Shown here piece after piece: positions 8,397 through 63,230 of a DNA stretch of 64,000 nucleotides. The position numbers were made by a program, and so were the translations under genes. The DNA is from Holophagales bacterium (lineage in GTDB: Bacteria; Acidobacteriota; Thermoanaerobaculia; Multivoradales; UBA5704): contig JANMTS010000035.1 of assembly GCA_031390755.1 (NCBI GenBank), positions 28,758 through 92,757 of the forward strand, read 5' to 3'. How positions within the stretch are numbered: position 1 is the first letter of the stretch; the number at the start of each line of letters is the position of its first letter. The notes below the pieces were generated by a model. The model saw only the letters and a program-made list of their open reading frames with translations. It searched no databases and was not told the DNA's origin.

Positions 8397-9300
8397 CGTT
8401 CAGGCTCCACAGGACCGCTTCCCAGAAGTCCCGGACCATCGCGTTTTCGACGACCTCGACCTCCTCGCTGACCGACAGGAGAACCTCCCGGGCCTCCCGG
8501 TGGCGGCCACAGGTGCATAGCGCCGAGGCCGCACGTGCCGCGCACTCGACTCGATCGTCCACCTTGACGGCACAGCTCATCGCGGCGCGGAAGGACTCGG
8601 CCGCGGCCTCCCGCTCCCCCGCCTCTTCCTCCCGATGCCCGAGCCACATGCGAATCTCCAGAGCCAGCGCCCGCAGCGCATCCTGGGGAACCCGCTCCGA
8701 AGCCCGCATCGCTTCCGTCAGCGTGGCTGCCTTCCGGACTAGAGCGATGCACCGCCGACGGCGCTCGGGCTTCTCGTCCAGCAGAAGCATCACATTGCCC
8801 AGCTTGAACCGCAGCAGGATCGCCTCGTAGAGCGAAAACGTATCCTTCCCTGCCGTCGCTTCATGAGCCAGCGCGTAGAGGGCCGCCGCCTGGGGCAGGC
8901 TCCTGTCAGTCTCGAAAACCGCTTCGGCCAGCAGAAACGAATGCCGGCGGATGCGGTCGCGCTCGCCGGGAGGAAGGCCAAGCTGGTCGAGCCGTTCCCG
9001 CGCCGCGCCCTCCAAGAGATCCCGGAGCCGCGACAGATCGGAAGACTCCAGGTCCAACAGCTGATCGCCTTCGAGGTTCAAACGCTCCAGCACGGCTTCA
9101 GCCAGCTCCGAGCCCGACGCGTGGTTGGCCAGAGCGTCCCAGTAACCGTGCTCCATCTCCGTATCGGGAACCCGGCGCGGCCCGAGCCAGGCTCTCAGCG
9201 CTTTCAGCGTGCCGGTCATGTCTCCCGAGAGGAGACGGTCCCAGTCAGGAGAGGAGGCTGTGTGGAAGCCCTCCTGATGGTGGCCCTTTCCGTTCTGCAT
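8389..9300 (-). CDS. Hypothetical all-alpha (TPR-like?) protein inside the CHAT/peptidase operon
   Basis: 303-aa ORF with no recognisable motif. It is directly adjacent (no gap) to the upstream peptidase gene and overlaps the downstream CHAT-FGE gene. Confidence 0.5.
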   Translation of the reverse strand: MQNGKGHHQEGFHTASSPDWDRLLSGDMTGTLKALRAWLGPRRVPDTEMEHGYWDALANHASGSELAEAVLERLNLEGDQLLDLESSDLSRLRDLLEGAARERLDQLGLPPGERDRIRRHSFLLAEAVFETDRSLPQAAALYALAHEATAGKDTFSLYEAILLRFKLGNVMLLLDEKPERRRRCIALVRKAATLTEAMRASERVPQDALRALALEIRMWLGHREEEAGEREAAAESFRAAMSCAVKVDDRVECAARAASALCTCGRHREAREVLLSVSEEVEVVENAMVRDFWEAVLWSLNDG

Positions 9301-10743
9301 TCAATCGAGGCTCCGCAGCATGCGCTTCTTCTTCCCGGCCGTGCGCAGCCTCACTGCGGGATCGCCGACGACGACGTAGTTTCGAGCGTCCTGGCTCTCA
9401 ATCCAGAGCTCGGCGAGGGCCTTTCGGTCCAGAGTGTCTTCAAGAAAGGCCTTCTTGAGTAGCTCTCCCAGAACCGTCGAGATGTCGGAGAATCGCTGGT
9501 TGAGCGGCTCCATGGCCCAGCCAACCCGGCCTCCACCAAGCAGCCGATTCATGGTCTCGACGAACGGGAGGATCTGTGAGCCCGTATCGCGCCAGAGAAA
9601 AGACTGCTGCCACACCTGCTCCACGTGGCCGATGACGGCCAGGGCTCCGCCATCCGGGTGGCTGAGCAGACGCTGCGCCAGGCTCGACACAAAGGGCTTC
9701 GGCGACACTGCCCGCATGTCTTCGACTCTGGAGGCAAAGTCATTGTTGACCGGAGTACCCGCGCTGTTGCAGGCAAACAGAAAGGCGATGAGGCCCAGCA
9801 AGCGGGCAGGCCCGTCAAGGTCAGCGGCCGAAAAGACATGCTCCGGCCCGGCAGCTTCCGTACACGGCCAGTCTTGGCATACGAGGGCGCCCTGGTGACT
9901 CCGTTGGCGAACATGTCCGTTCTTGTAGTAGACACCGTGACCAGCCGAGAACAGGAGATCCGGCGTCTCGTCTCCTCCGAGAAGTCGCCGCAGTCGCTCT
10001 TTGGTAGCCTTCTCTGCCAGGTAGGTCTCACACTGACAGCCAGGCTTGCCATCAAGCTCTTCGATCAGCGGCTTCAGCAATCGCTCATTGCTGACCTCGG
10101 TCCCCGCGTCCTGACAGGGGCCAAAAAAGGCGACCTTTGGACTCGGCTTGAACTCGTCCTCGGCTGCAACAACTGCCGCAGCGTAGGCAGCGAAAGCCTC
10201 TGGCGTCTCGAAGTGAACCCGCCCCACGGCATGGTGGTGATCGAGCCCATATTGGAATTCGAAGGGGATGTCCTCCGGACTGCCCACCAGAAGCAGGTAA
10301 TAGGGAACCTTCTTCGGATCGACTCTGCCGGGGCCAGCTCCCATGCGGGCGAGAAAATCCAGTTTGTCCTCGCCGCGGACATAACCCTTCTCGCCTGCGT
10401 AGATCTTGTAGAGAGAGCCTGCCTGTTCTCTGCGAAGCTTGAGCAGGGGCTCAAGAGCGTCGAGGCTCTCGGAGGCGAAGCGATCGGAGCCGGACACGAC
10501 GACGCCCCATCCGGCCTGGCTCAGATCGTTGGCGTCGACTCCGTCCTTGAGCTCGCGAACACGCCGCTTCTTCGACTTCGCGAGCCGCTCTAAGAGGATC
10601 TCCTCAACCTCGCGGGGGGAAACCGGTCGGCCGGTGTCTCCATCAATGCCACCCGCGCCGAGATTTGTCCTTGTGATCATCCGTGCACCTCCTGCGCAGG
10701 TCGCGGCAGGCGGGCCTTCACCCGCCTGCCAGCGGTTGGTCAC
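9301..10743 (-). CDS. Gingipain-like (peptidase C25-like) clan-CD cysteine peptidase, cytoplasmic (no signal peptide)
   Basis: 480 aa from GTG at 10743 (possible later start at MITRTNLG). Sequence blocks resemble the gingipain catalytic domain: YYLLLVGSPEDIPFEF (cf. YVLLIGDHKDIP), LLFSAGHGVYYKNGH (catalytic His) and LIAFLFACNSAGTP (catalytic Cys). GTGA overlap with the upstream small ORF. Confidence 0.6.
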   Translation of the reverse strand: MTNRWQAGEGPPAATCAGGARMITRTNLGAGGIDGDTGRPVSPREVEEILLERLAKSKKRRVRELKDGVDANDLSQAGWGVVVSGSDRFASESLDALEPLLKLRREQAGSLYKIYAGEKGYVRGEDKLDFLARMGAGPGRVDPKKVPYYLLLVGSPEDIPFEFQYGLDHHHAVGRVHFETPEAFAAYAAAVVAAEDEFKPSPKVAFFGPCQDAGTEVSNERLLKPLIEELDGKPGCQCETYLAEKATKERLRRLLGGDETPDLLFSAGHGVYYKNGHVRQRSHQGALVCQDWPCTEAAGPEHVFSAADLDGPARLLGLIAFLFACNSAGTPVNNDFASRVEDMRAVSPKPFVSSLAQRLLSHPDGGALAVIGHVEQVWQQSFLWRDTGSQILPFVETMNRLLGGGRVGWAMEPLNQRFSDISTVLGELLKKAFLEDTLDRKALAELWIESQDARNYVVVGDPAVRLRTAGKKKRMLRSLD

Positions 10744-10955
10744 TTGCCTTCGGTGGGATAACTCTGATTGCCCTTCGTGGTGGCGTCATCCTGAGCCGGA
10801 GCGGGTACTGCGCCAGCGACGGGATAGCTCTGGTTTCCCTTCCCTGTGCCGTCATCTTGGGCGGGTGCGGGATCTTCCCCCGGCGTGGGGTAGCTCTTGT
10901 TTCCCTTGGCCGTGACGTCACTCTGCGGATCCAACTGCGTGGTCTTGCCCTCCAT
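10740..10955 (-). CDS. Small hydrophilic tandem-repeat protein (3 x about 22-aa repeat KGN[KQ]SYP..PAPAQDD..), first gene of the peptidase operon
   Basis: 71 aa: MEGKTTQLDPQSDVTAKGNKSYPTPGEDPAPAQDDGTGKGNQSYPVAGAVPAPAQDDATTKGNQSYPTEGK. The DNA shows a 66-bp tandem repeat x3. Its stop overlaps the peptidase GTG start. Confidence 0.45.
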   Translation of the reverse strand: MEGKTTQLDPQSDVTAKGNKSYPTPGEDPAPAQDDGTGKGNQSYPVAGAVPAPAQDDATTKGNQSYPTEGK

Positions 10956-11117
10956 TGGGATCTCCTTTCAAGCATGGCGGATGCGATTCAGTCGCCCCGG
11001 TCATTCGAATAGACACCAGCTGCAGATAATTGTTGGGGGGCTGACAAACCTGGAGCGCCGCATCAACGCTCGTAGCGGGTGTCGGCGGTGTGGCAGGAGT
11101 CGTCGCTTGGAGGAATT

Positions 11118-13394
11118 TCAGTAAGGCTCGCCCTGCAGCAAGAACGCGGCCCAGGCCTTGGGCAAGCTTAGCTGGGACGATCTTTCGCCACGCAGGGACA
11201 ATTGAGCAGCCCGGAGCGCCTCTGAGGGCGGGAGCTTCTCGACCAGCATCTGATGATAAAACCGCTCCATCAATTCCTTCGTCCAGTCGTCCCGGACATT
11301 CCATAGACTGACCACAACTCGCTTGGCCCCGGCATGGAGGAAGGCCCGCGTCATTCCCATCGGCCCCTCGCCTCGCACCCTGGGGCCCAGGCCGCTTCCA
11401 CAGGCGCTCAGGACGACCAATTCCGCAGGAAATTTGAGCTTGTAGATCTCCGAAGCTCGAAGCAGGCCCTCCTGCAACACTCCCCGGTGGTCGTAGCGAG
11501 ACAGCACGAGCCCGCTGAAGTCAGGGTGGTCGTTGTAGATGTGATGCGTGCTGATGTGCAGGATCTGGTAGAGCGACAGGGACGGATCCATGGCCGTAGC
11601 ACGGTTGGCCTCGAATCCAATCGCCAGAAATCGGTCGGAGGGCGGAACCAACTTGAGGATGGCGTCAGCCTCGTCAGCCGTATCGGGCAGTCGTGACAAA
11701 CTGCCATAGTCCAACTCTCCCACCAGCCCCCGACTCTGGCTTCGAGAGTCTATTTTGACGCCGTTCAACCTCCGGTCGTCCCGGTTGAAGACGGCGTCCG
11801 TCAGCAACGCCAGTTGTTTGGGTGCCGGCTGCCGGCCCGAGAGGTTCCGTCGCATCTCCACTTGATAGGAGGCTGAGGGCACGTAACTGATGATGTGTCG
11901 ATCGATCAGTTCGCCCCGAGTCGAGGGCAGCGCGGCAAATGGGATCTGATGCAGGGCACCGTCTGCTCGAACCAGGAGTCGCTTGCGGAGCAAGGGCTCT
12001 GCGGCAGCCGGAAGGATGGCGAGGGCCAGTTCCCTGGCCTTCCAACCACGGTTCCTGTCACTCGACAGCTCTCTCCACGTCTCCGCGGCCAGGCCTTCGA
12101 TGACGTTCCGGCCTTTCTTCAGGTCGAAGGCATCGATCCGGTCCGGATTGACCACCCACAGGTAGCTGCCACGCTCTCCGAGCGAATACGAGAGGAGAGT
12201 CGTCTCCTTGTCCAGAAGCTTTCGCTGAATCTCCTGGAGACGGCTCCCCTCTTCTCTACCAAAATCGTCCAATAGAGACCGTGAGTGCGACAGGTCGCTG
12301 ATCTCGAAGGCCTTCACGGCTCGACTGACATCCCGGTCGCGCCGATAGAGCTCCATGAAGAGTGTGACATAGAGGTCGTAGTACTTCTGCCGGAAGGAGA
12401 AGAAGCCGACCCGCGCCCCGACGTCTTCAAGGCCTGTGCGGCTTGCCTCAACTAGATCGATCGATCGCTTCAGCGAGGCCAGGGCATCCTCATATCGCCC
12501 GAGGTCGCGGAGGACCTCGGCTCGGCCGAAGAGCATAGACGCCTGGGCCAGAGGCTCCGGAACGGATTCAAGAAGCCTATAGGCTTCGTCAAATAGACGA
12601 AGGGCCTCGGATTCTCTCCCCTGGACATCCTCCAGATGAGCAAGATCCGCCAGGGAGAAAGCCTCCCAGCGAAGGCTCCCGGCTCGTCTTGCTGTGGATG
12701 CAGCCTCCTCCAAACCCTGTCTTGCCAGGGTCATCTTGCCTTGATCTCGGTAGACATTTCCGCGTCGCTGGAGGGTGCGAGCCCGGTCTTCCTGGTCCTG
12801 AGCCACTCTCAAGCCGTTCTCATAAGCCCACAAAGCTTTATCCAGCTTGTCGAGATCGTGGTACGCGAGACCCAAGCCATCGTAAACCATGCCCAGCACG
12901 TCCCGCCGAGATTCCACCTGGCTGAGCTTTCGAGCCTGCTCGTAGTACTTCAGGGCTTCTTCACTCAAACCGACCGTCAAGAGAAGTTGCCCGAGATCGC
13001 AGTTCGTCAGCGCCTGTTCAGAGGGTTCGTTTACCGAGGGCCAGATTTGAAGCGCTCGTCGATATTCGGTGAACGCAGTCTGAAGCTCGCCGCGATAGAA
13101 GGCGAGCGAGCCGTACCCATTGTGGGCCATTGCCAGCCCTCCCTGATCCCCTGCGGCCTCGGCCAACCTGAAGGCACGATCGTAGTGATCCTTTGCCTGT
13201 CTGGCGTCGACCTCTTCCAGCCGACGACCTGCCGCAATCTCTTTTCGGACTTCCGAGCTGCGGATCGGCCTCTTCGAGGTCGCCGGGCGTGAGGCAGGTG
13301 AGGGAGGAGTCCGAGAGTAGGGCTCGACGGGGGCGGTCGCCAAGCACGCCAGCAGCACTCCCGCAAGCGTGAATTTACAGCGGTTAAAGAGCAT
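11118..13394 (-). CDS. Secreted TPR-repeat protein with C-terminal CHAT domain
   Basis: 758 aa with a signal peptide (LAGVLLACLATAPVEP) and multiple TPR-like repeats (..ALKYYEQARKL.., ..ALWAYENGLRV..). The C-terminal CHAT region has LYQILHISTHHIY (His) and ELVVLSACGSGLG (Cys). Confidence 0.75.
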   Translation of the reverse strand: MLFNRCKFTLAGVLLACLATAPVEPYSRTPPSPASRPATSKRPIRSSEVRKEIAAGRRLEEVDARQAKDHYDRAFRLAEAAGDQGGLAMAHNGYGSLAFYRGELQTAFTEYRRALQIWPSVNEPSEQALTNCDLGQLLLTVGLSEEALKYYEQARKLSQVESRRDVLGMVYDGLGLAYHDLDKLDKALWAYENGLRVAQDQEDRARTLQRRGNVYRDQGKMTLARQGLEEAASTARRAGSLRWEAFSLADLAHLEDVQGRESEALRLFDEAYRLLESVPEPLAQASMLFGRAEVLRDLGRYEDALASLKRSIDLVEASRTGLEDVGARVGFFSFRQKYYDLYVTLFMELYRRDRDVSRAVKAFEISDLSHSRSLLDDFGREEGSRLQEIQRKLLDKETTLLSYSLGERGSYLWVVNPDRIDAFDLKKGRNVIEGLAAETWRELSSDRNRGWKARELALAILPAAAEPLLRKRLLVRADGALHQIPFAALPSTRGELIDRHIISYVPSASYQVEMRRNLSGRQPAPKQLALLTDAVFNRDDRRLNGVKIDSRSQSRGLVGELDYGSLSRLPDTADEADAILKLVPPSDRFLAIGFEANRATAMDPSLSLYQILHISTHHIYNDHPDFSGLVLSRYDHRGVLQEGLLRASEIYKLKFPAELVVLSACGSGLGPRVRGEGPMGMTRAFLHAGAKRVVVSLWNVRDDWTKELMERFYHQMLVEKLPPSEALRAAQLSLRGERSSQLSLPKAWAAFLLQGEPY

Positions 13395-14184
13395 TGATCT
13401 CGAAAGGCTTCTCGCTGATTAAGTGTTCTCCTGGATCATTCGCGAGCCGGCCGTAGGTCTTTGCCAGATAACGCCCTGCGGGAAGGGTTCCGCCAGGGAT
13501 GACGAATGAACCACTTGGCGAAGAGTTACCCTTGAAAGAGGTTCTCCAGACCTCGCGTTCACCTTGCAGGATCCGCCCTTCAAACAGGGCGTACTCATCC
13601 TTGGCATAAGATTGAACTGTGATGGCAACGTTTCCAGGGAAGAGATCCAAGTCCTCCTCTGACAATCCTCCTCGGGTCGGCGTAGTATCCAGCACATTGA
13701 TGGCCCCACCCTCGACCGTAGACCTTGGGGTGAGATTCAATCCACACAGGAGCCCTAGCCCCCCGGCTACAACCAAGGCAGCCGCTTGAGCCCAAAGGCG
13801 AGCCTTACGCCTCGATGGCGCTTCTGGGGATGGAGCCGTCACGGGAGCGCGGAACGGTAGCACCGCCGCAGCCTGCTCTTCCACCTCTCTCCTCTCCGCC
13901 GCCAGCTTCGCCTTCAACGCCTGCCAGTCCTCCTCCACCTCCGCATCGGTAAGCTCCGGCACTCCCGCAGGCGGGGCCAGGGTGGCGAAGCCGGCCAGAT
14001 CGAGGAGGAGGTCGCTGCAGTGCCGGCAGAGCGCCAGGTGCTGGCGGACGCGGGCTTCGGCCTCCGTGGGGAGGGAGCCTTCGTGGTAGGCGGTCAGCTC
14101 CCGGGGGGTGGCGTGCTCGGTGCTGCGCTCACGTTCCGCAAGGTGGCGGATCGCAGCGTTGAGGGATGGTTTTTCTTGGCTCAC
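13384..14184 (-). CDS. Anti-sigma factor (zf-HC2 putative zinc-finger, single TM)
   Basis: Motif HLALCRHCSDLL (zf-HC2) and a TM segment LWAQAAALVVAGGLGLLCGL. A likely GTG start at 14184 overlaps the sigma-factor stop. Its 3' end overlaps the TPR-CHAT start by 11 nt. Confidence 0.6.
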   Translation of the reverse strand: MSQEKPSLNAAIRHLAERERSTEHATPRELTAYHEGSLPTEAEARVRQHLALCRHCSDLLLDLAGFATLAPPAGVPELTDAEVEEDWQALKAKLAAERREVEEQAAAVLPFRAPVTAPSPEAPSRRKARLWAQAAALVVAGGLGLLCGLNLTPRSTVEGGAINVLDTTPTRGGLSEEDLDLFPGNVAITVQSYAKDEYALFEGRILQGEREVWRTSFKGNSSPSGSFVIPGGTLPAGRYLAKTYGRLANDPGEHLISEKPFEINAL

Positions 14185-14185
14185 G

Positions 14186-14770
14186 TCAATACTCTTCACT
14201 TGTAAAATAATTTCCCAGCCGGTCCCGGAGGTGCTGCCTTGCTTGATACAAGTGCGCCTTGACGGTCTCAATGGAGACGCTCATCTCCTCCGCGATCTCA
14301 CGATACTTCAAATCGCCGTCCACGCGCAGGAACACAGCCTTCTTCATCTGCGGCGGAAGCTCCGCCAGGGCGTCGCGAAGAAGCTTCTCCCGCTCGCGCC
14401 CCAGGATGGCCTCCAGCGGATCGTTTTCGCCTTCGCCGTCCAGGGCCACCGTTCCCGCTTCGGACTCCTCCAGGGGGATCTCCTCCCGGTCCCTCTTCAG
14501 GGTCCCTTGAGTCCGAAGCTGGTTCTTGTAGAGATTCGCCGCGATCTGGAACAGCCAGGTTTCGATGCTGCTGTCCCCGCGGAAGCTCTCTCTATTTCTA
14601 TAGACCCGAAGAAATGTCTCTTGGGCGAGGTCGCGGCTCTCATCCACCGAAAATCCCCGGCGGAGAAAGAAGGAGACGACCGGGCGGTGGTATCGCCGGA
14701 AGAGATCCTCAGCCACTACACCTGGAGTGTTGTCGTCGGATCCGAGGTCGTCCGTCATAACCATCGACAC
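14186..14770 (-). CDS. ECF-family RNA polymerase sigma-70 factor
   Basis: 194 aa with region 2 (FLRVYRNRESFRGDSSIETWLFQIAANLYKN) and region 4 (LPPQMKKAVFLRVDGDLKYREIAEEMSVSIETVKAHLYQARQHLR). Confidence 0.85.
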   Translation of the reverse strand: MSMVMTDDLGSDDNTPGVVAEDLFRRYHRPVVSFFLRRGFSVDESRDLAQETFLRVYRNRESFRGDSSIETWLFQIAANLYKNQLRTQGTLKRDREEIPLEESEAGTVALDGEGENDPLEAILGREREKLLRDALAELPPQMKKAVFLRVDGDLKYREIAEEMSVSIETVKAHLYQARQHLRDRLGNYFTSEEY

Positions 14771-18306: not shown

Positions 18307-21300
18307 TCATGTCTGCGCCGCGGCGCCAAGGAGCGAAGCGCTCTCGGGACCCAACGCGGGGGTCGACTCGGGAGCGAGCTCGCGGGCGAGGTTGTCGACC
18401 TTCTCCACGTAGCGGGGGACGTTCAGGCGGACGAACGCGCGGCGGGCTTCGGCCAGGTGGGAGGCCGCTTCCGGGGTCGCCTCTCCGGCGAGCATGGCGA
18501 GGTCGAGCCGGGTCCGCGCCACCTCGAACGGCACCTGGAGGGCCTCGAACCGCTCCAGGGCTTCCCGCAGATGCTCCCCCGCTTCTCCGGGGCGCCCCTG
18601 GACGCGGGTGATCTCGCCGAGAATCCTCTGCGCCAGGCCGACGCCGTACCAGAAGGAGGCCTCGCGGGTCACCGCCAGGGCCTGGGCCGCGAGCGCGGCA
18701 GCTTCGTCGGTCTTCCCCTCGCGCAGGCGGGCTTCGGCCAGGAACGCGGAGAACCAGCCCTGGAGCTGGCGCATGCCGGTGGCCTCGATGCGGCGGATCG
18801 ACTCCTCCAGGGTCTCGACGGCTTGAACGAGATCCCCTTTCTGGAGCCAGGAGTAGCCGAGGAAGCCGAGCGCGGCGGCGGTGTTGAGGGGATCCTGGGC
18901 GCGTTCGAGGCCCGCCCGGCAGAGCTCGACGCCGGCTTCCCAGTCTCCCAGCGAGGCATGGAAGTAGCCGGTGCTCCACGACGGGTCGAGGCGGGAGTCT
19001 TCGAGCGTCAGATAGATGTCGTGCGCGCGGGCCATGGCCGCGAGCGCCTGCTCGAAGCTGCCGAGAAGGTAGTGGTGGAAGCCGGCCACCCAGAACGCCT
19101 GGCCCTGCCACCAGCGGTCCTCGGTGCCTTCCAGCAGAGCCACCGCCTGGAGGCCGGAGACGATGCCCTCGGAGAACCGGCCGGCCCAGAACGCGTCCCG
19201 CGAGAGCACGTAGCAAGCCCGGCCCTCGGTGCCGGTCTCACCGGACCGCCGGGCCTCTTCGATGGCCAGCAGGGCGAACCGGGATGCCTCGGCCTGGTTG
19301 CCGAGATAGCTGTGGGTGTGGGCCAGCCAGAAGTGGAACTGGCCGCTCAGGGAGTCGTCGCCGAGCTTCTCGACGCGCTGGCAGTGGCTCGTGAGCAGCT
19401 CCAGCGTCTCGGGGAGCTGGGCCAGGGGGAGGAGCGAAGCCGCCAGCCGCAGGACCAGCTCGACGATCCGCCGCTCCCGGTGGTCTCGACGTCCCCCGGC
19501 GTCCCCGTCCGGCAGGCCGGCGGCGTGGCGGATGGCGTCCCGCAGCGCGCGCGCCGCCTCGGCGTGGGCATAGGTGGCCGCGGCCTGCTCGGCGAACAGC
19601 CCCAGGTAGAGGACGGCCCTCTCCTCCTCGCCGGCCTCGGACACGTGCCAGGCCAGCCGGTCGTAGACCTCCTCCAGCCGGCCGGCGTAGAGCTGCTCGA
19701 ACGCCCGGCCGGCCGCGGCGTGGAGCGCCCGGCGCCGGCTGGTGAGGAGTGTCTGGTAGACGGCCTCCTGGGTGAGCGCGTGCTTGAAGATGTAGATCGC
19801 CGTCTCGGAGGTCGGCTGCTCGTACAGGAACTCCCAGCGTTTCAGGTCGGTCAGCAGCGGCCCGAGGTTGCCGTCCTCCTCCCAGACCGCGGTCAGGAGC
19901 GCGAGCGACAGCTCCCGGCCCAGGACCGAAGCGGTCTGAAGCAGCCGCTTGTGGCCCTCAGGCAGCCGGTCGATGCGCGCCAGGAGAACGCCCTGGATGG
20001 TGTCCGGCACGGAGACGTTCGGGCTTTCGAGGACGGACCGGGTCAGCTCCTCCAGGAAGAACGGGTTGCCTTCGGCCTTGCTGAGCACGGTTGCCAGCAG
20101 GGCGCCGGACAGGGTCGACCGGTGGAGCACGGCCTGGATGATCTGCCGGCTCTCGCGCTCGGAGAGGCGCGGCAGGGAGATCTGGGTGGCGAAGGACTTC
20201 TCCATCCAGCGCGGCCGGTAGCCGGAGCGGTAGGTGACGAGCAGGAGCATTCGCGCCGCCACCAGGCCGTCGATGAGATATCCGAGGAACTCCTCGGACG
20301 TGGGATCGATCCAGTGGAGATCCTCGATCTCCAGGATCACCATCCGTCCCTGGCCAGTATTTCCGGCAGTACTGCCGGAAATACCACTGGAAGTACTGCC
20401 GGCATGGAGAATGGCCTGGCGCAGGATCTGGAACGTGCGGGTCTGGAGCGCCTGCGGGCTCAGCTCGGCGAGCCCCTCGGTGCCCTCGCGCACGCCGAGG
20501 AGCATCAGGAGGTAGGGCACGGACTCCTCCTGATGGAGTCCCGCCCGCTCCAGGCCCGCGCGCACCTTGGCCGCGACCTGGGCGGGTGAGTCGGCGTCGC
20601 CGATCTTCCACTCGCCGCGCAGCATGTAGAGGAGCGGCAGGTAGGGCATGCCGCTGCCGTAGGAGAGGCAGCGGCCGGTCAGGAAGAGCACATCCTCGCT
20701 CCAGAGCCGGCGCCGCAGCTCGTAGAGCAGTCTCGACTTGCCCGAGCCGGCCTCGCCGGCGATGCCGAGGATCTGCCCTTCCCCGCCGGACGCGCGCTCG
20801 CGCAGCTCGTCGAGCAGCGCCACCTCGCGGTTGCGGCCGACGAAGGGGGACAGCTCGGAGCCGCTCAGCACCGCCTGCTCGGACGGCCGCGAGCCGGCGC
20901 CCAGCACCTGATAGGCCTGGATGGGCTCGGCTTTGCCTTTCACGTGGGCCGGCGGCAGCGCGCGCAGCTCGACGCCTCCCTGGAGGAAGCGCATGGTGGT
21001 CTCGCTGACCAGCACGGTGCCGGGCTCTGCGATCTGCTGGAGCCGCGCCGCGAGGTTGGTGGTGTCGCCGACCGCCGTGTAGTCGCGGCGGAGATGGTCG
21101 CCGATGCCGCCGACCACGACCCAGCCGGTGTTGATGCCCATGCGCACCCGCACGTCGGACTCCTGGGGCTCGTCGCCCTGCGCCTCTCCCTGAAGAATCT
21201 CCAGCCGCTTGAGCAGCCCCAGCGCCGCAAGCACGGCCCGCCGGGCGTGGTCCTCGTGGGCGATCGGCGCGCCGAACAGGGCCATGAAGCCGTCGCCGAG

Positions 21301-21795
21301 GAACTGGTTGATCGTCCCCTCGTAGCGGTGGACCTCGCCGAGCGCGGTCTCGAAGAATTGATTGAGCAGGAGGTGCATGGCCTCGGGGCCGACGCGGTCG
21401 GCGAGCGCCGTGGAGCCCACGAGGTCGCAGAAGAGGACGGTGACCTGCTTGCGCTCGCCTTCGAGGGCCGCCTTGGTCTGGAGCCCGGCGAGATGCTGGG
21501 GCGTGTAGCCCTGGAGGACCGGGACCGGGCGCGACGGCTCGTCCGCCTGCGGCTTGTCGAGCAGGTTGGACGGGGCCGTAGCCATCGCCGGGGGCGGCGG
21601 GGTCAGCAGGGTCGGCGGGATCGGTGGTGCGGCCGGCGGCGGAAGCGACAGGGCACCGCCGCACTCGCCGCAGAAGCGGAAGCCGGGTGGGTTCTCCGCT
21701 CCACACTGCGGGCAGACCGGGGAGAGCTTCCCCCCGCACTGGCCGCAGAACTTCATGTTCGGCGGGCTGTCGAATTGGCAATTCGGACACTTCAT
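18307..21795 (-). CDS. Signal-transduction protein: double zinc-ribbon + class III adenylate/guanylate cyclase domain + AAA/STAND ATPase + TPR repeats
   Basis: 1162 aa. N-terminus MKCPNCQFD..CGQCGG..CPQCGAEN..CGECGG. Cyclase core VTVLFCDLVGSTALADRVGPEAM...GINTGWVVVG..IGDHLRRDYTAVGDTTNLAARL. P-loop GIAGEAGSGKSRLL. The C-terminal half is helical-repeat. Confidence 0.8.
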   Translation of the reverse strand: MKCPNCQFDSPPNMKFCGQCGGKLSPVCPQCGAENPPGFRFCGECGGALSLPPPAAPPIPPTLLTPPPPAMATAPSNLLDKPQADEPSRPVPVLQGYTPQHLAGLQTKAALEGERKQVTVLFCDLVGSTALADRVGPEAMHLLLNQFFETALGEVHRYEGTINQFLGDGFMALFGAPIAHEDHARRAVLAALGLLKRLEILQGEAQGDEPQESDVRVRMGINTGWVVVGGIGDHLRRDYTAVGDTTNLAARLQQIAEPGTVLVSETTMRFLQGGVELRALPPAHVKGKAEPIQAYQVLGAGSRPSEQAVLSGSELSPFVGRNREVALLDELRERASGGEGQILGIAGEAGSGKSRLLYELRRRLWSEDVLFLTGRCLSYGSGMPYLPLLYMLRGEWKIGDADSPAQVAAKVRAGLERAGLHQEESVPYLLMLLGVREGTEGLAELSPQALQTRTFQILRQAILHAGSTSSGISGSTAGNTGQGRMVILEIEDLHWIDPTSEEFLGYLIDGLVAARMLLLVTYRSGYRPRWMEKSFATQISLPRLSERESRQIIQAVLHRSTLSGALLATVLSKAEGNPFFLEELTRSVLESPNVSVPDTIQGVLLARIDRLPEGHKRLLQTASVLGRELSLALLTAVWEEDGNLGPLLTDLKRWEFLYEQPTSETAIYIFKHALTQEAVYQTLLTSRRRALHAAAGRAFEQLYAGRLEEVYDRLAWHVSEAGEEERAVLYLGLFAEQAAATYAHAEAARALRDAIRHAAGLPDGDAGGRRDHRERRIVELVLRLAASLLPLAQLPETLELLTSHCQRVEKLGDDSLSGQFHFWLAHTHSYLGNQAEASRFALLAIEEARRSGETGTEGRACYVLSRDAFWAGRFSEGIVSGLQAVALLEGTEDRWWQGQAFWVAGFHHYLLGSFEQALAAMARAHDIYLTLEDSRLDPSWSTGYFHASLGDWEAGVELCRAGLERAQDPLNTAAALGFLGYSWLQKGDLVQAVETLEESIRRIEATGMRQLQGWFSAFLAEARLREGKTDEAAALAAQALAVTREASFWYGVGLAQRILGEITRVQGRPGEAGEHLREALERFEALQVPFEVARTRLDLAMLAGEATPEAASHLAEARRAFVRLNVPRYVEKVDNLARELAPESTPALGPESASLLGAAAQT

Positions 21796-22197: not shown

Positions 22198-22268
22198 GGG
22201 GGCTCCTCTTGAATGTTGCGGATGATATCGGCTTCCCGGCAAGGAAGCCCTCAACTGCATTCCCTGTA

Positions 22269-22368
22269 CGTAGGGGCAACCCTTGTGGTTGCCCTCTTCG
22301 TGGCAGCTCCGGATGCGCAGCAGAGGGCGGCCACAAGAGCCGCCCCTACAGGAAGATCATGTCGTTTC
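22269..22368. repeat. REP/MITE-like palindromic element family 2, copy 1 (two tandem hairpins aggggcaacccttgtggttgccct ... agggcggccacaagagccgcccct)
   Basis: Seen directly. It is about 95 % identical to 23029..23125, and a shortened copy is at 56043..56100. It translates as ..RGNPCGCPLRG.. in the spurious ORFs. Confidence 0.7.
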
Positions 22369-22436
22369 GGGGGCATCCGGAGCCGCCGCGAAACCTCTAC
22401 GATCGGGCTGCGTACCGTCAACACAAGGAGACTCCC

Positions 22437-23015
22437 ATGACCAAGACGGTTGAGACAGCCCGGATCGAGACGATGGACCCACTCACGAGGCGGCGAATGC
22501 TGGGAGTCGGAGCCCTGCTGGCTGCCGGACTCGGAGGATCGTCCCTCTTCGCCCAGACCGCCGCTCCTGCGCCGACCGCCCCGGTCGCGCCGGCCGCGCC
22601 AGCCAAGAAGCCCGCCCCGGACCGCGGCCCCCGGCTGGATGCGGATCTGGTCAAGGAGTTCGTGGGTGCGGCCCACGGCAACCTGGAACGGACCAAGGAG
22701 ATGCTCGCGGCGCAGCCGGCGCTCGTGAACGCCACGTGGGACTGGGGCGGCGGCGACTGGGAGACCGGTCTGGGCGGCGCCTCCCACATGGGCAACCGCG
22801 AGATCGCCGAGTTTCTCCTCGCGCACAATGCCCGCATGGACGTCTTCTGCGCCGTGATGCTCGGCAAGGTCGATCTCGTGAAGGCGTTCCTGGCCGACAA
22901 CCCGAACGTGGTTCACCTGCCCGGACCGCACCGCATCTCCCTCCTCCGCCACGCCGAGGCCGGCAAGCAGGAGGCTCTGGTGGAGCTTCTCAAGGCTCAC
23001 GGCGCCAAGGCGTAG
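22437..23015 (+). CDS. TAT-secreted ankyrin-repeat protein
   Basis: Start ATG 22437 with an AAGGAG RBS at 22425..22430. Twin-arginine signal TRRRMLGVGALLAAG, Ala/Pro-rich linker, then ankyrin-like repeats (GGASHMGNREIAEFLLAHNARMD.., LLRHAEAGKQEALVELLKAHGAKA). Confidence 0.65.
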   Translation: MTKTVETARIETMDPLTRRRMLGVGALLAAGLGGSSLFAQTAAPAPTAPVAPAAPAKKPAPDRGPRLDADLVKEFVGAAHGNLERTKEMLAAQPALVNATWDWGGGDWETGLGGASHMGNREIAEFLLAHNARMDVFCAVMLGKVDLVKAFLADNPNVVHLPGPHRISLLRHAEAGKQEALVELLKAHGAKA

Positions 23016-23028
23016 GCCGGTCAAATGC

Positions 23029-23125
23029 GTAGGGGCAACCCTTGTGGTTGCCCTCTTCGTGGCGGCTCCGGATGCGCAGAGGGCGGCCACAAGAGCCGCC
23101 CCTACAGAAAGATCCTGTCGTTTCC
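23029..23125. repeat. REP/MITE-like palindromic element family 2, copy 2 (direct orientation relative to copy 1)
   Basis: Seen directly. Together with copy 1 it brackets the ankyrin gene. Confidence 0.7.
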
Positions 23126-23212
23126 AGTGAGACAGACAGGCCCGGCCGAGGGCGTCCCCCCGACCGGGCCTGTCGATTCCTTCCCGTCAATGCTTCCGAA
23201 ACTGCACCCGGC

Positions 23213-23611
23213 CTAGTCGGCCAGAGGCGGCACCGTTTCCACCAACTCGACCGGCGGCACCGGATCGGGCTTGCGGAGGGTGGGGCGCGACCGGCGGCGG
23301 CGCAGCGGGGCCACCTGGAACTGCACCAGGCGCTCGCTCTGCGTGCCGATCAGGCCCTTCGCCAGGCCGCGCAGACGCCGCGCCTGCTCGCGGCCGATCA
23401 CGATGCGCTCCAACAGCTCCTGCGTGGTCTGCTGGCGCTGCGCCGCACGCGAATCCTGCAACGCCTTGAGATCCCGGACCGCGTTGAGCGTCTGGGCCAG
23501 GAGCACCTGCACCGGCTGCGCCGGCGACATCACGTCCACATTGTCGGAATACGCCTGGAGCAGGAGCTCCCAATCGATGATGTTGTCGGCATACGACGTT
23601 CTCGTTCTCAT
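23213..23611 (-). CDS. Hypothetical protein
   Basis: ORF with protein-like composition. Chosen start is the internal ATG (MRTRTSYADNIIDWELLLQAY..), because the track's longer ORF starts at TTG. No recognised domain. Confidence 0.35.
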   Translation of the reverse strand: MRTRTSYADNIIDWELLLQAYSDNVDVMSPAQPVQVLLAQTLNAVRDLKALQDSRAAQRQQTTQELLERIVIGREQARRLRGLAKGLIGTQSERLVQFQVAPLRRRRSRPTLRKPDPVPPVELVETVPPLAD

Positions 23612-23993
23612 GGTCTTTCTTCTTTCTATGGGCTTATCGCGCCCACGGTTGTCCTTCAATGAACCTTGGTTCCGGTTTCCCGACCGGTCGACGTCACCTT
23701 TGTCGGTGTCTTGCGATCTCTGTCGAATGTCACGATGTATTCATGCTTGCCCTCCTTCTCCTCACGGACGGAAGCCTAAGACGGTCAATGACCGATGTCA
23801 AGAGGGAGATTTTTCGCTTTTTGACGAACCGATCCCGTACCGGGCTTTACCTGGCCCTACCTGGCCCTACCGGGCTATACGGAATTAGATGGAGCTTTAC
23901 GGAAATTGGCTGAAACTCGGAGCGGGGCGGTCGCCGTCCGGGTTGGCCGGCTTGCCGAAGGGTTCGGGGCGCCAGAGAGCTGGCTCTATTTCA

Positions 23994-24022
23994 TTGCAGT
24001 AACTTGCCACTCATGGCATATT
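23994..24022 (+). promoter_or_regulatory. Putative sigma70-like promoter for abiEi (-35 TTGCAG, 17-bp spacer, -10 CATATT) giving a leaderless or very short-leader transcript (ATG at 24029)
   Basis: Hexamers and spacing read directly. No experimental support. Confidence 0.3.
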
Positions 24023-24028
24023 GCTGCC

Positions 24029-24670
24029 ATGAAATTCGACCGACTGCTGGAGATCGTCGGCGAAGAGCCCGTCTTCGAGGCGGGGCTTCTTCTGGCGGGC
24101 GATGTCGACCCGGCCGATGTCCGCCGCCAGCTTTCCCGCTGGGAGGGTGCGGGCAAGCTGTTCCAGCTCCGCCGCGGTCTCTATGCCCTGGCTCCCCCGT
24201 ATCGGCGGGTTCTGCCCCATCCCTTCCTCGTCGCCAACCATCTGGTCCGCGGCTCCTACGTCAGTCTTCAGGCGGCCCTGGCCCACTACGGCCTGATTCC
24301 CGAGTCTGTGCCCGTGACCACCAGCGTGACCGCGGGCCGCCCCGGGCAGTGGGACACGCCTCTGGGAAGCTACCTCTACCGCCATCTCCGGCCCGATCTC
24401 CTGACCGGCTTCCGCCGGACGCCTCTCGCAGGCGGACAGGAGGCTCTCGTGGCCTCTCCCGAGAAGGCGCTTCTCGATCTTCTCTATCTGGAGCCGGACG
24501 CCGACACCGAGCCGTATCTGGCCGAGCTGCGTCTCCAGCATCTGGAGGGGTTGGATCTCGACGAGCTCCATCGCCTGGCGGAGCGGTTCGGAAAACCCAA
24601 GCTCTTGCGCGCCGCCGAGCGCGTGGCGCGACTGGCTGCTGTCGAGGCTGAGGAGTACGAGCCGCTGTGA
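24029..24670 (+). CDS. abiEi: Type IV toxin-antitoxin system AbiEi-family antitoxin (transcriptional regulator)
   Basis: 213 aa: MKFDRLLEIVGEEPVFEAGLLLAG..VRRQLSRWEGAGKLFQLRRGLYALAPPYRRVLPHPFLVANHLVRGSYVSLQAALAHYGLIPE. This is characteristic AbiEi/COG5340. A 4-bp overlap joins it to the downstream toxin. Confidence 0.8.
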   Translation: MKFDRLLEIVGEEPVFEAGLLLAGDVDPADVRRQLSRWEGAGKLFQLRRGLYALAPPYRRVLPHPFLVANHLVRGSYVSLQAALAHYGLIPESVPVTTSVTAGRPGQWDTPLGSYLYRHLRPDLLTGFRRTPLAGGQEALVASPEKALLDLLYLEPDADTEPYLAELRLQHLEGLDLDELHRLAERFGKPKLLRAAERVARLAAVEAEEYEPL

Positions 24671-25473
24671 GACGCGATCTGATCGATCTTCTGCGCGGCA
24701 GCGCGAGCCCCACCGAGAGCCGGAATCGCCTTCGCGAGCTGCTCCAGGCCCGGATTCTGTCGTCCCTCCAGCGCGCGGGAGCCATGGTGCCGCTCGCCTT
24801 CCAGGGCGGCACCGCCTTGCGGTTTCTCTACGGCATCGGCCGCTATTCGGAAGATCTGGACTTCGCCCTGGAGCGGCCTGACCGGGGTTACGACTTCCGC
24901 CCCTACCTCCAGAGGATTCAGGCCGATCTGCGGCAGGAGGGTTTCGAGACCGAAACCAAAGTGAACGACCAGAAAGTCATGCACAGCGCCTTCCTCGCCT
25001 TTCCGGGCCTGCTCTTCGAGGCCGACCTCTCCCCCCATTCCAACGAGAAGCTCTCGGTCAAGATCGAGGTCGACACGCGACCGCCGTCCGGAGCCGTTCT
25101 CGAAACCAGCGTGGTCCGCCGGCATGCGACGCTCCAGCTCCAGCATCACGACAAAGCCTCCCTGCTCGCCGGAAAGCTCCACGCGATCCTCCAGCGCCCT
25201 TATGTGAAGGGCCGGGATCTCTACGACCTGATCTGGTACTTGAGCGACCGTTCCTGGCCGGCCCCGAATCTCGCGCTGCTCAACAACGCCCTCGCGCAAA
25301 GCCAATGGACGGAGGGTCCCCTGACCCCGGAGACCTGGAAGGAGCGGGCCGCCGAGAGGCTTCAGGGAATCGACTGGGAGAGAGTCCTGGCCGATGTCCG
25401 GCCATTTCTCGAAGACGCGAGAGAGATCGAAATCCTCACGCGGGAGAATGCCTTGCGGCTGCTGAACGGGTGA
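24667..25473 (+). CDS. abiEii: Nucleotidyltransferase AbiEii/AbiGii-family toxin (DUF1814)
   Basis: 268 aa with the GT-type nucleotidyltransferase motif FQGGTALRFLYGIGRYSEDLDFAL. The operon arrangement with AbiEi is typical. Confidence 0.8.
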   Translation: MRRDLIDLLRGSASPTESRNRLRELLQARILSSLQRAGAMVPLAFQGGTALRFLYGIGRYSEDLDFALERPDRGYDFRPYLQRIQADLRQEGFETETKVNDQKVMHSAFLAFPGLLFEADLSPHSNEKLSVKIEVDTRPPSGAVLETSVVRRHATLQLQHHDKASLLAGKLHAILQRPYVKGRDLYDLIWYLSDRSWPAPNLALLNNALAQSQWTEGPLTPETWKERAAERLQGIDWERVLADVRPFLEDAREIEILTRENALRLLNG

Positions 25474-25556
25474 TTCGCCACACTGTTTGTCCCGAAGGGA
25501 CATAGGGATAAAGACTGGCAAGCCGTGTCCGTCCGTCGCCGCGCCTTGGCTCCTCC

Positions 25557-25823
25557 GTCGCAATCCCACCGTGCTGATCAGGGCATTTCCGACGATGGTT
25601 ACATCAACGGAAGGGGGTACGTCGCTTGGAGCGAGTCGCAATCCCACCGTGCTGACCAGGGCATTTCCGACTTTTCGGCTTTCTGGTTGCGAAGTTCGTT
25701 GCCGCGTTGAAGAAGTCGCAATCCCACCGTGCTGATCAGGGCATTTCCGACACGGTTGCGCATTGGATTCCCGTTACGCGTCAGGCGTCGCAATCCCACC
25801 GTGCTGATCAGGGCATTTCCGAC
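25557..25823. CRISPR. Orphan CRISPR mini-array: 4 x 37-bp repeats (GTCGCAATCCCACCGTGCTGATCAGGGCATTTCCGAC; repeat 2 has one SNP), 3 unique spacers of 41, 43 and 35 bp
   Basis: Repeats at 25557-25593, 25635-25671, 25715-25751 and 25787-25823, read directly. No cas genes are in the window. A lower-GC flank at 25824-26150 could be a leader. Confidence 0.65.
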
Positions 25824-26189
25824 TCCGGCCTCGCCAACCCACTGATTCCAAAGGGTCCAAACCGCCTGATTTTCTGACCCCTCGAAATCGCCCCCTCGAA
25901 GGGGCCTTTCCATGCCGTCGGGCGACTCTCGCTTTCCATCTCAAACCTCTCAGTCCATTCAAGATACCGGCCTGGTTCTGAAGTGCCCGCCAAAAGGGAA
26001 CATCGGCGCAGGCATGATTCTTGTCAGGTCCGGGCTCTCGCTTGTCAAAGAACGGCGCAATCTAATCCTACAGGGAGAGACACCTCTTGGGGAAGATTTG
26101 TTGGCCCAGCCACTTCCAGGGCTGAGGAGGGTTGGGGGTGGCCCACCGAACCGGGGTCGCGCGCCTGCGGCGCTTCTGACCCCGGCCTT

Positions 26190-26329
26190 CACACATCCAC
26201 CGCATCCGCAGCAAAGACGGAGCCCGCTGAGCCCGTGTCGAGAAGAACCCGATCCAGCCGAAGCTGCTGGCCGCCAAACCGAAGAGTCACTGTGATGTAA
26301 GGAAGCCCGCCTTCGATATGCAGCTTCAC
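26190..26329 (-). pseudogene. Remnant of a retropepsin-like (clan AA) aspartic protease gene (46 codons: VKLHIEGGLPYITVTLRFGGQQLRLDRVLLDTGSAGSVFAADAVDV, then stop)
   Basis: Manual translation. The DTGS active-site context is present but the ORF stops after 46 codons. Its GTG start overlaps the stop of the upstream 86-aa gene (GTGA). Confidence 0.35.
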
Positions 26330-26586
26330 GCCGCTCCCCGGATACCAAGCCAACGCAGCTCTTCGATCTCAAGCTCCACGCGGTCGGTGCTCAGGACATA
26401 GAGCTCGCGTTGTGGGGCCTTCTGATGGACTTCCATGTAGCCGTCCATCGCAGCCTTGCCGGTCGGAAATGTCGCGAGGACGGCGATGTCGTCAAGGATG
26501 CGGCGGTTGACCTCGGAGTGGGCGGCCGTCGCTTCGACCAGGAGCCATTGCCCGGGGAAATGCGCGCGGATTTCGGGCCACGTCAT
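26326..26586 (-). CDS. Small hypothetical protein (86 aa) upstream of the aspartic-protease remnant
   Basis: MTWPEIRAHFPGQWLLVEATAAHSEVNRRILDDIAVLATFPTGKAAMDGYMEVHQKAPQRELYVLSTDRVELEIEELRWLGIRGAA. Globular-looking composition. The upstream part of the track ORF (WRSSPAAW repeats) is the minisatellite read antisense and is rejected. Confidence 0.4.
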   Translation of the reverse strand: MTWPEIRAHFPGQWLLVEATAAHSEVNRRILDDIAVLATFPTGKAAMDGYMEVHQKAPQRELYVLSTDRVELEIEELRWLGIRGAA

Positions 26587-26787
26587 GCTTGCTCTCCTCT
26601 TGCTTCCATGGGCTTCATCGGCCTTCCACGGCCTGGAGCTAGTATAGCGGGCCGCAATCCCACCCGTGCGCCTGGAAGCCGGCTTGCCGCTCAAGGTTGC
26701 CTCCATCCGATGCCGCCTCGCGCCGGCGAGACGCCGGCGGTCCCAGGAGGGAGGCGCGCGGTAGGGGTTGGGAAGATCGCCGCACGG

Positions 26788-26845
26788 GTGGGGGTTCCCC
26801 CTCTCCCCCCGGAAGGGGGCCAGGGGGTGAGGATTCGAAGCGAAT
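26788..26845. repeat. REP-like element family 3 (..GGGGTTCCCCCTCTCCCCCCGGAAGGGGGCCAGGGGGTGAGGATTCGAAGC..)
   Basis: Related copies at 31776..31832 (inverted), 31897..31957 and 61731..61807. Confidence 0.55.
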
Positions 26846-26941
26846 CCCTTCCGTGAACGGTCTGGGCGTCGCGTGAGCCCTCGCCCCCGTCCCCGGGGCT
26901 GGGGATGAGGGCCGCAGGGCTCCGCCGCCCGATCTCCGGAC

Positions 26942-27205
26942 GACCGCCACCAAGCTCTGGACGACCGCCACACAGCTGGCGGTGACCGCCACACAGCTGG
27001 CGATGACCGCCACGCAGCTGGCGGTGACCGCCGCACAGCTGGCGATGACCGCCACGCAGCTGGCGATGACCGCCACGCAGCTGGCGATGACCGCCACGCA
27101 GCTGGCGATGACCGCCATCCAGCTGGCGGTGACCGCCACACGGTTGGCGGCGACCGCCACGCGGCTGGCGGTGACCGCCACGCGGCTGGCGGTGACCGCC
27201 ACGAA
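26942..27205. repeat. Minisatellite: about 12.5 tandem copies of a 21-bp unit GACCGCCAC(A/G)CAGCTGGCG(G/A)T
   Basis: Seen directly. In frame it would give heptads MTATQLA (+) or VAVTASR/WRSSPAA (-). Whether it is coding is unknown. Confidence 0.85.
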
Positions 27206-27289
27206 AGGCGCGACGGCCCAGAGATCGGGCGGCACGGCTCCCGCGCCGGTCCGGACGGCCCGCGGAGAGATCGGGGACGGCCGCGCGGA

Positions 27290-62437: not shown

Positions 62438-62516
62438 GTTCCAGTTTAGCAGCAACCTGCCTGCATGGAGGGGCACTCGGGACGTGGAGTCAAATGCCGG
62501 AGAGCTCCATAAGCCG
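62438..62516. repeat. 78-bp direct repeat, copy 2 (covers the rnpB 3' end and its downstream flank)
   Basis: See copy 1. Confidence 0.8.
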
Positions 62517-62910
62517 AGTTCTGTATCTCCGGCCGAAGCCGGATAGCTGTCATTCCTCTGGGACCGGCGTTGCCACCGGCCTCCAGCAACCTACCCGGGA
62601 GTTGGCCCCGGACCCGAAGGTCCGAGGGCGGGACGGGCAGCCCGACTACCACTCCCCTATTTGGTCTTGCGCCGCATGGGGTTTTCCGTGCCTTCGCCGT
62701 CGCCGACGAAGCGGTGCGCTCTTACCGCACCATTTCACCCTTACCGGGACCCGCGCCCCGAGGGACGAAGGCTCCGGCGGTATCTTTTCTGTTTCACTTT
62801 CCGTCGCGTCGCCGCGCCTCGCCGTTAGCGAGCATGCTGCCCGTCGGAGCTCGGACTTTCCTCTCCAGGCCGTCCCGAAGGACGCTTGGAGCGACCGCCT
62901 GGACCTCTCC
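62499..62910 (-). ncRNA. rnpB: RNase P RNA, bacterial type A
   Basis: The reverse complement contains the universally conserved blocks GGAGAGGAAAGTCCGAGCTCCGAC (P4 5' strand), AAGGGTGAAATGGTGCGGTAAGAGCGCACC (P10-P12 region) and ACAGAACTCGGCTTATGGAGCTCTCC (P4 3' strand plus P1 closing). The ends are approximate (+/-10 nt). Confidence 0.85.
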
Positions 62911-62959: not shown

Positions 62960-63230
62960 CGAATTCTGATGCGACAAACAAGGTTGCCGCTGCGACAAAC
63001 AGGATTTTGCAGCGACAAACCCGTGAGTCACATCAGAATACCCGTGAGTCGCAGCAGAAATCTTGTTTGTCGCAGCAGAATACCCGACTTTGGATGCGAC
63101 AAACAGGAATTCTGCTGCGACTCGGATGTGAGTTGATGCGACAGACGGGTTTTTTGCTGCGACTCAGTGGAATTTTGATGTGACAAACAGGGCTGTCGAT
63201 GTGAGTTGCGGGCAGTTGGATGCGAAATGG
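62960..63230. repeat. Cluster of degenerate direct and inverted repeats built on the motif (GA)TGCGACAAACA(GG); the last three form an about 42-bp tandem unit. Located 50-320 bp upstream of the rnpB 5' end
   Basis: Motif copies at about 62966, 62991, 63011, 63066 (inverted, GTTTGTCGCAGCAG), 63093, 63135 and 63177. The companion motif TGCTGCGACTC recurs at 63110 and 63157. The ORFs over it are low-complexity and rejected. Confidence 0.6.

Follow-up and report, generated by a model that had tools for sequence, protein, structure and literature searches.

CRISPR arrays that stand apart from cas genes are common and well described. In the survey by Bernheim et al. (2019), 23% of the arrays were distant, that is, located more than 20 kb from cas genes, 12% were orphan and 35% lacked adjacent cas genes (PMC7145637). 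A cas cluster in trans was matched by 75% of the distant arrays, and the mean number of repeats was 13 in distant arrays and 8 in orphan arrays (PMC7145637). Use in trans has been shown experimentally for CRISPR05 of Marinomonas mediterranea, an array located about 250 kb from the cas genes, which is processed in trans and whose crRNAs feed a type III-B effector with an RT-Cas1 adaptation module (PMC5576922). Processing of repeats 8 nt from their 3′ end is a documented rule (PMC5576922).

The array described here is located in a stretch of 64,000 nt (the window). Like the distant and orphan arrays of the survey, it is short, lies more than 20 kb from cas genes and has a repeat of a known cas-linked family, but its 4 repeats fall below the means of 13 and 8, and with only three spacers it is small even among distant arrays (PMC7145637). 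It resembles CRISPR05, which is cleaved 8 nt upstream of the repeat 3′ end, in being isolated and without neighbouring cas genes. In contrast to CRISPR05, a 37-spacer type I-F array (Cas6f), the window array has a repeat family that itself adjoins type III genes, and it is known from its sequence. With two type III-B (Cmr) RT/Cas1/Cas2 loci found among its relatives (L008 and L001) it shares a weakly structured 37-nt repeat, the octamer ATTGCGAC, spacers of 34–48 nt and the leader, whereas it has no adjacent effector, Cas6 or adaptation gene. The locus is almost certainly a genuine CRISPR array, with a repeat from a family associated with type III genes. It is an ordinary distant or orphan mini-array and not a new kind of system, and it can be annotated as a minus-strand, cas-distant CRISPR array of that family with no functional link to the adjacent AbiE module.

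The array consists of four copies of the 37-nt unit GTCGCAATCCCACCGTGCTGATCAGGGCATTTCCGAC (plus strand), whose starts are 78, 80 and 72 nt apart (Table 1). The only difference between these near-identical direct repeats is a T>C change at 25656, in the second copy in plus-strand coordinates, which amounts to one SNP in 148 nt; C is also the base present in the sister repeat of a further relative, L022. The three spacers, of 41, 43 and 35 nt, are mutually unrelated and have lengths within the range of the family. A scan of the 64 kb allowing up to three mismatches found these four copies, against none in 100 shuffles, and no further copy elsewhere in the window. No second copy of any spacer was present in the window or in the fetched loci, even at up to 10 mismatches, and TRF finds no tandem repeat at the array. 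An earlier note on this DNA had described four 37-bp repeats with one SNP and unique spacers of these lengths, unlike simple tandem repeats, and this description is borne out; the possibility it raised that the spacers are themselves repeated genomic sequence finds no support within the window. The region is also represented in an independent Logan assembly (SRR20217208; L011), which has an identical abiEii and the same junction between abiEii and repeat 1 and ends 22 nt into repeat 1. A contig end inside the repeat is typical assembler behaviour at arrays. The repeat ends had been called partially self-complementary. Pairing is indeed present (GUCG with CGAC, and AAU with AUU), but the repeat folds no better than shuffled sequence (z = −0.7), and a stable repeat hairpin was rejected on that ground.

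Table 1. Positions in the window of the array, its flanking elements and the island that contains them.
Feature	Position	Strand	Basis
Variable island of 5.1 kb, glyoxalase start to arginase-family stop	22199..27289	.	Comparison with L023
abiEi antitoxin, 213 aa (gene call in L011)	24029..24670	+	
abiEii, nucleotidyltransferase toxin, convergent with the array	24667..25473	+	Pfam PF08843, E = 5e-30
Trailer element holding hairpin GTCCCTTCGGGAC (25489–25501)	25489..25519	-	
CRISPR repeat 4 in transcription order, terminal, not degenerate	25557..25593	-	
Spacer, 41 nt, leader-distal, presumably oldest; GC 0.56	25594..25634	-	
CRISPR repeat 3 in transcription order; SNP is C at 25656 (plus strand)	25635..25671	-	
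Spacer, 43 nt; crRNA sense begins TTCT; GC 0.49	25672..25714	-	
CRISPR repeat 2 in transcription order	25715..25751	-	
Spacer, 35 nt, leader-proximal, presumably newest; GC 0.60; without match	25752..25786	-	
CRISPR repeat 1 in transcription order, leader-proximal; crRNA sense GTCGGAAATGCCCTGATCAGCACGGTGGGATTGCGAC	25787..25823	-	
Leader, conserved repeat-proximal part, about 75 nt	25824..25900	-	Alignment to leaders of cas-linked arrays
Distal leader or spacer DNA, from truncated protease ORF to conserved leader	25901..26188	-	
Truncated (46 aa) retropepsin-like Asp-protease ORF	26189..26329	-	Comparison with intact L022 and L023 genes (127–128 aa)
Conserved 86-aa protein, function not known, partner of the Asp protease	26326..26586	-	64 homologues
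Possible remnant of the repeat 3′ half (GCACGGGTGGGATTGCGGCC), in array orientation	26650..26669	-	

The direction of reading was deduced from the relatives. Where terminal repeats are degenerate (L001, L006, L007 and L010), they always come last, on the 3′ side, when the array is read in the sense ending in ATTGCGAC. Because the degenerate repeats lie 3′ and the conserved sequence lies on the opposite side, the window array, whose own terminal repeat is intact, is read on the minus strand, with its leader extending from 25824 upward. The repeat in crRNA sense thus runs GTCGGAAAT...ATTGCGAC, and the form given in the earlier note is its reverse complement. A plus-strand reading was rejected on the basis of the terminal-repeat degeneracy in the relatives, the ATTGCGAC handle and the position of the leader. 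This changes the meaning of the statement that the array lies immediately downstream of abiEii: the adjacency holds, as the array starts 83 nt past the abiEii stop codon (25473), but the transcriptional sense does not, as the minus-strand array converges on the gene. The 3′-terminal octamer of the repeat, ATTGCGAC, is of the kind found in the Cas6-processed, type III-associated class, and we take it to belong to the octamer-handle motif class of the ATTGNNAC type. Thermus-type repeats likewise end in ATTGCGAC. The octamer would serve as the 5′ handle of the crRNAs because cleavage takes place 8 nt before the repeat 3′ end (PMC5576922). A literature search on the AUUGCGAC tag returned nothing relevant.

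The sequences on both sides of the array point to the same family. The nearest match of the proximal leader is to the leader copies of L022, a homologue of the distal part was absent from every fetched locus, and no sigma-70-like promoter scored in the leader. On the other side, the hairpin GTCCCTTCGGGAC is located about 55 nt beyond the last repeat, between the array and abiEii. It is identical to the hairpins of the L022 trailers, where the surrounding 31 nt are 87% identical, and similar to the hairpin of the trailers of L001, L006 and L008. L022 has 11 copies of the hairpin, some in each orientation, next to an IS200/RAYT-like gene, and the hairpin probably represents a REP-like element rather than a component of the array itself.

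Relatives were sought in public genomes and metagenomes by means of both repeat ends with a free centre of 13 nt, which yielded ten loci, located in soil-type metagenomes and in two MAGs, one of Thermoanaerobaculia and one of Holophagales; L022 was reached via a neighbouring gene. The family repeat in crRNA sense is GTCGGAAATGCCCT(G/A)ATC....GG(T/A)GGGATTGCGAC, with 3–4 mismatches to the window repeat, and the family arrays comprise 2 to 30 repeats and 65 unique spacers of 34–48 nt. The window repeat differs at 4 positions from that of L008 and at 6 from that of L022. The repeats of L008 are flanked by genes for Cas1 (TIGR00287, 281 bits), a reverse transcriptase of the group-II-intron type, Cmr1, Cmr4 and Cmr6. 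In L001 two arrays flank a fusion of an RT fragment with Cas2. A Cas6-like ORF is present in L006, where it is supported by Pfam (PF10040), and in L010, where it was recognised by sequence resemblance, without a profile match. The sister repeat of L022 adjoins RAMPs of the Csx7/TIGR03986 type, Cas2 and Cas6. By the cas genes flanking L008, L001, L006, L010 and L022, the family is of the Cas6 type and serves type III effectors with RT/Cas1-Cas2 adaptation modules, and it occurs in Thermoanaerobaculia and Holophagae (Acidobacteriota). Because the same family forms cas-linked arrays with unique spacers, the earlier claim of a genuine CRISPR array is upheld.

The earlier note had also named an observation that would speak against a CRISPR array, namely the same 37-bp unit dispersed as a non-CRISPR repeat. 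Single copies of the repeat do exist in the relatives L003, L004 and L022, but a leader precedes every one of them, which marks them as empty or minimal arrays rather than members of a non-CRISPR repeat family. In the Holophagales MAG these empty arrays, a conserved leader followed by a single repeat, are located at 4001–4114 of L003 and 7831–7944 of L004. The same MAG has a mini-array of three repeats (L002, 5924–6113) flanked by an IS200-like transposase and by a pair that to the eye resembles VapBC, and no cas genes were visible in the stretches of 4.6–8 kb around its arrays (L002–L004). Other relatives are rearranged in different ways. In a single ORF of L001 (1157–1819), the N-terminal part of a group-II-intron-type RT (some 107 of 353 aa) runs directly into a complete Cas2, with duplicated leaders on both arrays around it, which looks like a deletion of most of the RT and all of Cas1. 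The region 3560–7260 of L022 is a fragmented type III locus in which a leader segment of 150–250 nt is present four times (90–95% identical), each time before a repeat. Three of these leader copies are followed by a single repeat and then by REP-like hairpins, forming units that are 90–93% identical, and two start precisely at a stop codon, one at that of cas2 and one at that of an Asp-protease gene. The cassettes bracketed by the repeats are cas2, an 86-aa gene with the Asp protease, the IS200/RAYT-like gene and MazE/VapC.

The GC content of the spacers, 0.49–0.60, against 0.67 for the genome, is consistent with a foreign origin. When they were compared by blastn with 50,697 phage records and 72,556 plasmids, the best E value was 0.8, and scans of IMG/VR with spacer halves returned only four 18-mer seeds, which were rejected as protospacers and attributed to chance since none extended beyond 19–25 of 35 matched nucleotides. 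The comparison with viral and plasmid sequences that the earlier note had proposed therefore produced no significant match. Missing protospacer matches are usual for environmental lineages. Read in crRNA sense, 16 of the 65 family spacers (25%) have the motif TTCT in their first 9 nt, about 10 times the frequency expected by chance, and 10 of these have it at offset 0. Elsewhere, it is found in 8 of the 65 when the remaining 30 nt or so are considered and in 4 when the last 9 nt are. Of the 65 spacers, 30 start with T. The carriers of the motif are spacers of L001, L005, L006 and L008 and the middle spacer of the window (minus sense), which ties the window spacers to the adaptation machinery of the family. 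The 5′ TTCT could be a retained PAM of the TTC type or an integrase preference.

Genes of the window were called by third-position GC, and about 56 ORFs were searched with Pfam, NCBIfam or PADLOC profiles. No cas gene was found by these searches in positions 1–64000, and no cas remnant or pseudogene was detected in the window by tblastn with the relatives' Cas1, RT, Cas2, Cas6 and Cmr1/4/6 (all E > 0.2). The flanks free of cas genes extend over 25.5 kb on the low-coordinate side and 38 kb on the high-coordinate side, which agrees with the earlier statement that none lie within 25 kb on either side. An adjacent cas gene, the feature missing at the window array, is not required for membership of CRISPR. 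The word orphan, which the earlier note had used, stands at the scale of the 64-kb window and corresponds there to the term distant: as profiles and tblastn found no cas gene in the 64 kb, the array qualifies at the least as distant by the definition of the survey, more than 20 kb from cas genes (PMC7145637). The gene content of the window is chromosomal, with leuA- and leuB-like genes, PDH E1, a tRNA synthetase, RecG, a CHAT/peptidase cluster, sigma factors, a multicopper oxidase and the RNase P RNA gene (62495–62910, minus strand).

The explanation that we favour, with modest confidence, is a minimal CRISPR array of the type III-associated family that is used in trans and was displaced from a locus like L022. 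Minus-strand transcription would run from the leader (25824 and above) through the array, and the transcript would be cleaved 8 nt ahead of the 3′ end of each repeat by a Cas6 whose gene lies elsewhere in the genome. The resulting crRNAs would bear AUUGCGAC as their 5′ handle and would enter a type III effector (Cmr- or Csx7-type), which would likewise be encoded in trans. The effector would target transcripts complementary to the three spacers, so that interference would depend on transcription of the target. All four steps (transcription, Cas6 cleavage, effector loading and interference) are ones that we infer for this array. As to its present state, continued use in trans has slightly better than an even chance and is more likely than a silent relic. 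The near-perfect repeats, the intact terminal repeat and the conservation of the leader point to use or to recent arrival, whereas the breakpoint described below, the truncated gene, the half-repeat and the tiny size favour decay. Use is also disfavoured by the lack of cas genes in the 64 kb, of a scoring promoter in the leader, of a homologue of the distal leader in the fetched loci and of any protospacer match.

The origin by displacement is suggested by the surroundings of the array. The array lies in an island between a glyoxalase gene and an arginase-family gene, which in L023 are 21 nt apart and 78–87% identical to the window pair. The island contains two ORFs of no assigned function, abiEi, abiEii, the hairpin, the array and its leader, the truncated Asp-protease ORF, the 86-aa gene, the half-repeat candidate and a 21-nt tandem array. 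The half-repeat candidate, GCACGGGTGGGATTGCGGCC, is the only additional match within two edits in the window. In L022 the intact pair of the 86-aa gene and a 127-aa Asp_protease_2 gene is located inside the type III locus, where it is preceded by a mini-array of two repeats and followed by a 218-nt leader that begins exactly at the stop codon of the pair, a single repeat and hairpins. Window positions 26597 to 25489 are colinear with L022 positions 4997 to 6016. Homology to L021, L022 and L023 ends at about 26193, where the window protease ORF is cut, and this position marks a rearrangement breakpoint. Together, the array unit and the 86-aa/Asp-protease cassette appear to be a displaced piece of a fragmented type III locus like L022, and in the most economical reading a fragment of such a locus would have been joined into a variable intergenic hotspot by illegitimate recombination. 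The two-gene cassette itself (window 26189–26586; L021, L022, L023 at 5001–5644), in which the stop codon of the 86-aa gene overlaps the start of the protease gene (GTGA), is found in three genomic contexts, truncated in the window and internally deleted in L021, and could be a small mobile or TA-like module.

The main competitor of use in trans is a true orphan relic, a silent leftover of recombination in neutral decay whose cognate Cas6 and type III genes were lost or never present. We regard it as a real, though minority, possibility. The lack of cas genes in the 64-kb window agrees with such a relic, as do the breakpoint at the locus, the truncated Asp-protease ORF beside it and the candidate half-repeat. 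Related loci are themselves eroding, as seen in the fusion of an RT fragment with cas2 in L001 and in L022, which has cas2 without cas1 and many single repeats. True orphans, moreover, represent 12% of all arrays and are short (PMC7145637). The state of the array argues in the opposite direction: its repeats carry a single SNP, its terminal repeat is intact and its proximal leader is conserved, and for most distant arrays a matching cas cluster exists in trans (PMC7145637). A recent transfer, however, would leave the same near-perfect repeats and conserved leader.

A different account of how the array reached its place is that a leader with one or a few repeats and a REP-like hairpin trailer forms a duplicating, relocating module that seeds satellite arrays in TA-rich hotspots, the window array being a seeded copy that gained three spacers. 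This idea, which we consider unlikely, comes from the leader, single-repeat and hairpin units at gene stop codons in L022, the loci with a leader and a single repeat in L003 and L004, and the TA-like flanks in the window, L002, L010 and L022. Such units could be copied through recombination, through the IS200/RAYT-like transposase encoded nearby or through integration by Cas1-Cas2 at ectopic sites.

It is less probable still, and in our view rather improbable, that the array is a guide array that travels with the 5.1-kb island and co-opts the type III machinery of the host against competing mobile elements. The array does lie within an insertion relative to L023, TA cassettes recur by small arrays of the family (L002 and L010, by eye; L022), and mobile elements are known to carry isolated arrays compatible with the cas clusters of their hosts (PMC7145637, PMC11300857). 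Nevertheless, comparison with the empty site of L023, which gave the island clean boundaries, revealed no integrase, terminal repeats, target-site duplication or mobile-element ends at the island, AbiEii homologues elsewhere have no array beside them, and no target of the spacers was found among phages, plasmids and IMG/VR.

The comparison of AbiEii homologues also bears on the suggestion of the earlier note that the array could regulate the adjacent AbiE module. In a locus of this arrangement, regulation could take place by antisense read-through or by crRNA-like RNAs, and the geometry would allow the former, as the array is convergent with abiEii at a distance of 83 nt and read-through would be antisense to the abiEii 3′ end. 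Homologues of AbiEii with 76–82% identity were found in four distinct contexts (L016–L020), in none of which a CRISPR-like repeat is present beside the gene; downstream of them are integrases, CHAT proteins or other genes. A conserved pairing of AbiE and array was rejected on this basis. No spacer is complementary to abiEi, abiEii or any other window sequence, the hairpin separates the array from abiEii, and the leader and trailer belong to the cas-linked family. A regulatory role is thus scarcely credible, and by these comparisons AbiE is to be seen as a neighbour of the array and not as its partner.

CRISPR-associated toxin-antitoxin arrangements include co-location in defence islands and RNA modules of the CreTA type. 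The window array resembles them in that a TA module directly adjoins it and TA-like pairs are present at L002, L010 and L022. It departs from the CreTA type because AbiE is a protein type IV TA and not a crRNA-like RNA antitoxin, and because the pairing is not conserved. By small arrays of the family, L002 has VapBC (an AbrB-type antitoxin and a PIN toxin) and L010 two small TA-like ORF pairs, all read by eye, and L022 has MazE and VapC/PIN, supported by profiles. Since the type of TA differs at each locus, this suggests co-location in defence islands and not a dedicated partnership. A CHAT protein adjoins an AbiE module in L016.

That the locus is not CRISPR at all but a tandem, REP-like or protein-coding repeat has next to no probability: the array is small, a 104-aa ORF (25599–25913, minus strand) overlaps it and no CRISPR-DR or other Rfam family accounts for it, but the family builds long arrays of unique spacers beside cas genes, which refutes this reading, TRF is silent at the array, the codon-position bias of the ORF is weak and similar ORFs cross every family array. 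The best Rfam match, CRISPR-DR20, was rejected because it reached 19.6 bits, below the gathering score of 42, and lies elsewhere (26205–26241).

The value of the locus is modest and lies in comparison, as the type III loci of Thermoanaerobaculia-like bacteria are heavily broken up into mini-arrays and single leader-repeat units amid TA-like and transposase cassettes. The fragmented loci and the TTCT motif are leads, not established findings, on the birth and decay of arrays and on type III/RT-linked adaptation. The less ordinary threads, which are unproven, are the duplication of units in L022, L003 and L004, the TTCT signature and the recurrent 21-nt tandem arrays. These last are made of units of 20–21 nt in up to 12–14 copies, each unit with a short palindrome, and the unit sequences are unrelated between loci. 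They are located at 26942–27203 of the window (12.5 copies), L022 2932–3230, L004 7187–7455, L003 4292–4343, L018 3823–4030 and L021 6715–6891. In four loci they lie 180–1100 nt from CRISPR repeats, and two loci have no CRISPR repeats: L021, and L018, whose tandem array lies close to the 3′ end of an integrase gene. The window tandem array was rejected as a CRISPR-linked feature because of these similar arrays in L018 and L021. The 198-aa ORF at 26639–27235 of the window is the 21-nt repeat read as heptads.

Further observations concern the rest of the window. The cluster at 6594–14770 encodes two CHAT-domain proteins, one an FGE-sulfatase fusion and the other with TPRs, together with a C25-like peptidase, a zf-HC2 anti-sigma-like ORF and an ECF sigma factor. 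A protein of 1162 aa with zinc-ribbon, adenylate-cyclase, AAA and TPR regions is encoded at 18307–21795. Beside the RNase P RNA gene, at 63019–63191, there are tandem repeats of 21 nt (3.2 copies) and 42 nt (2.4 copies).
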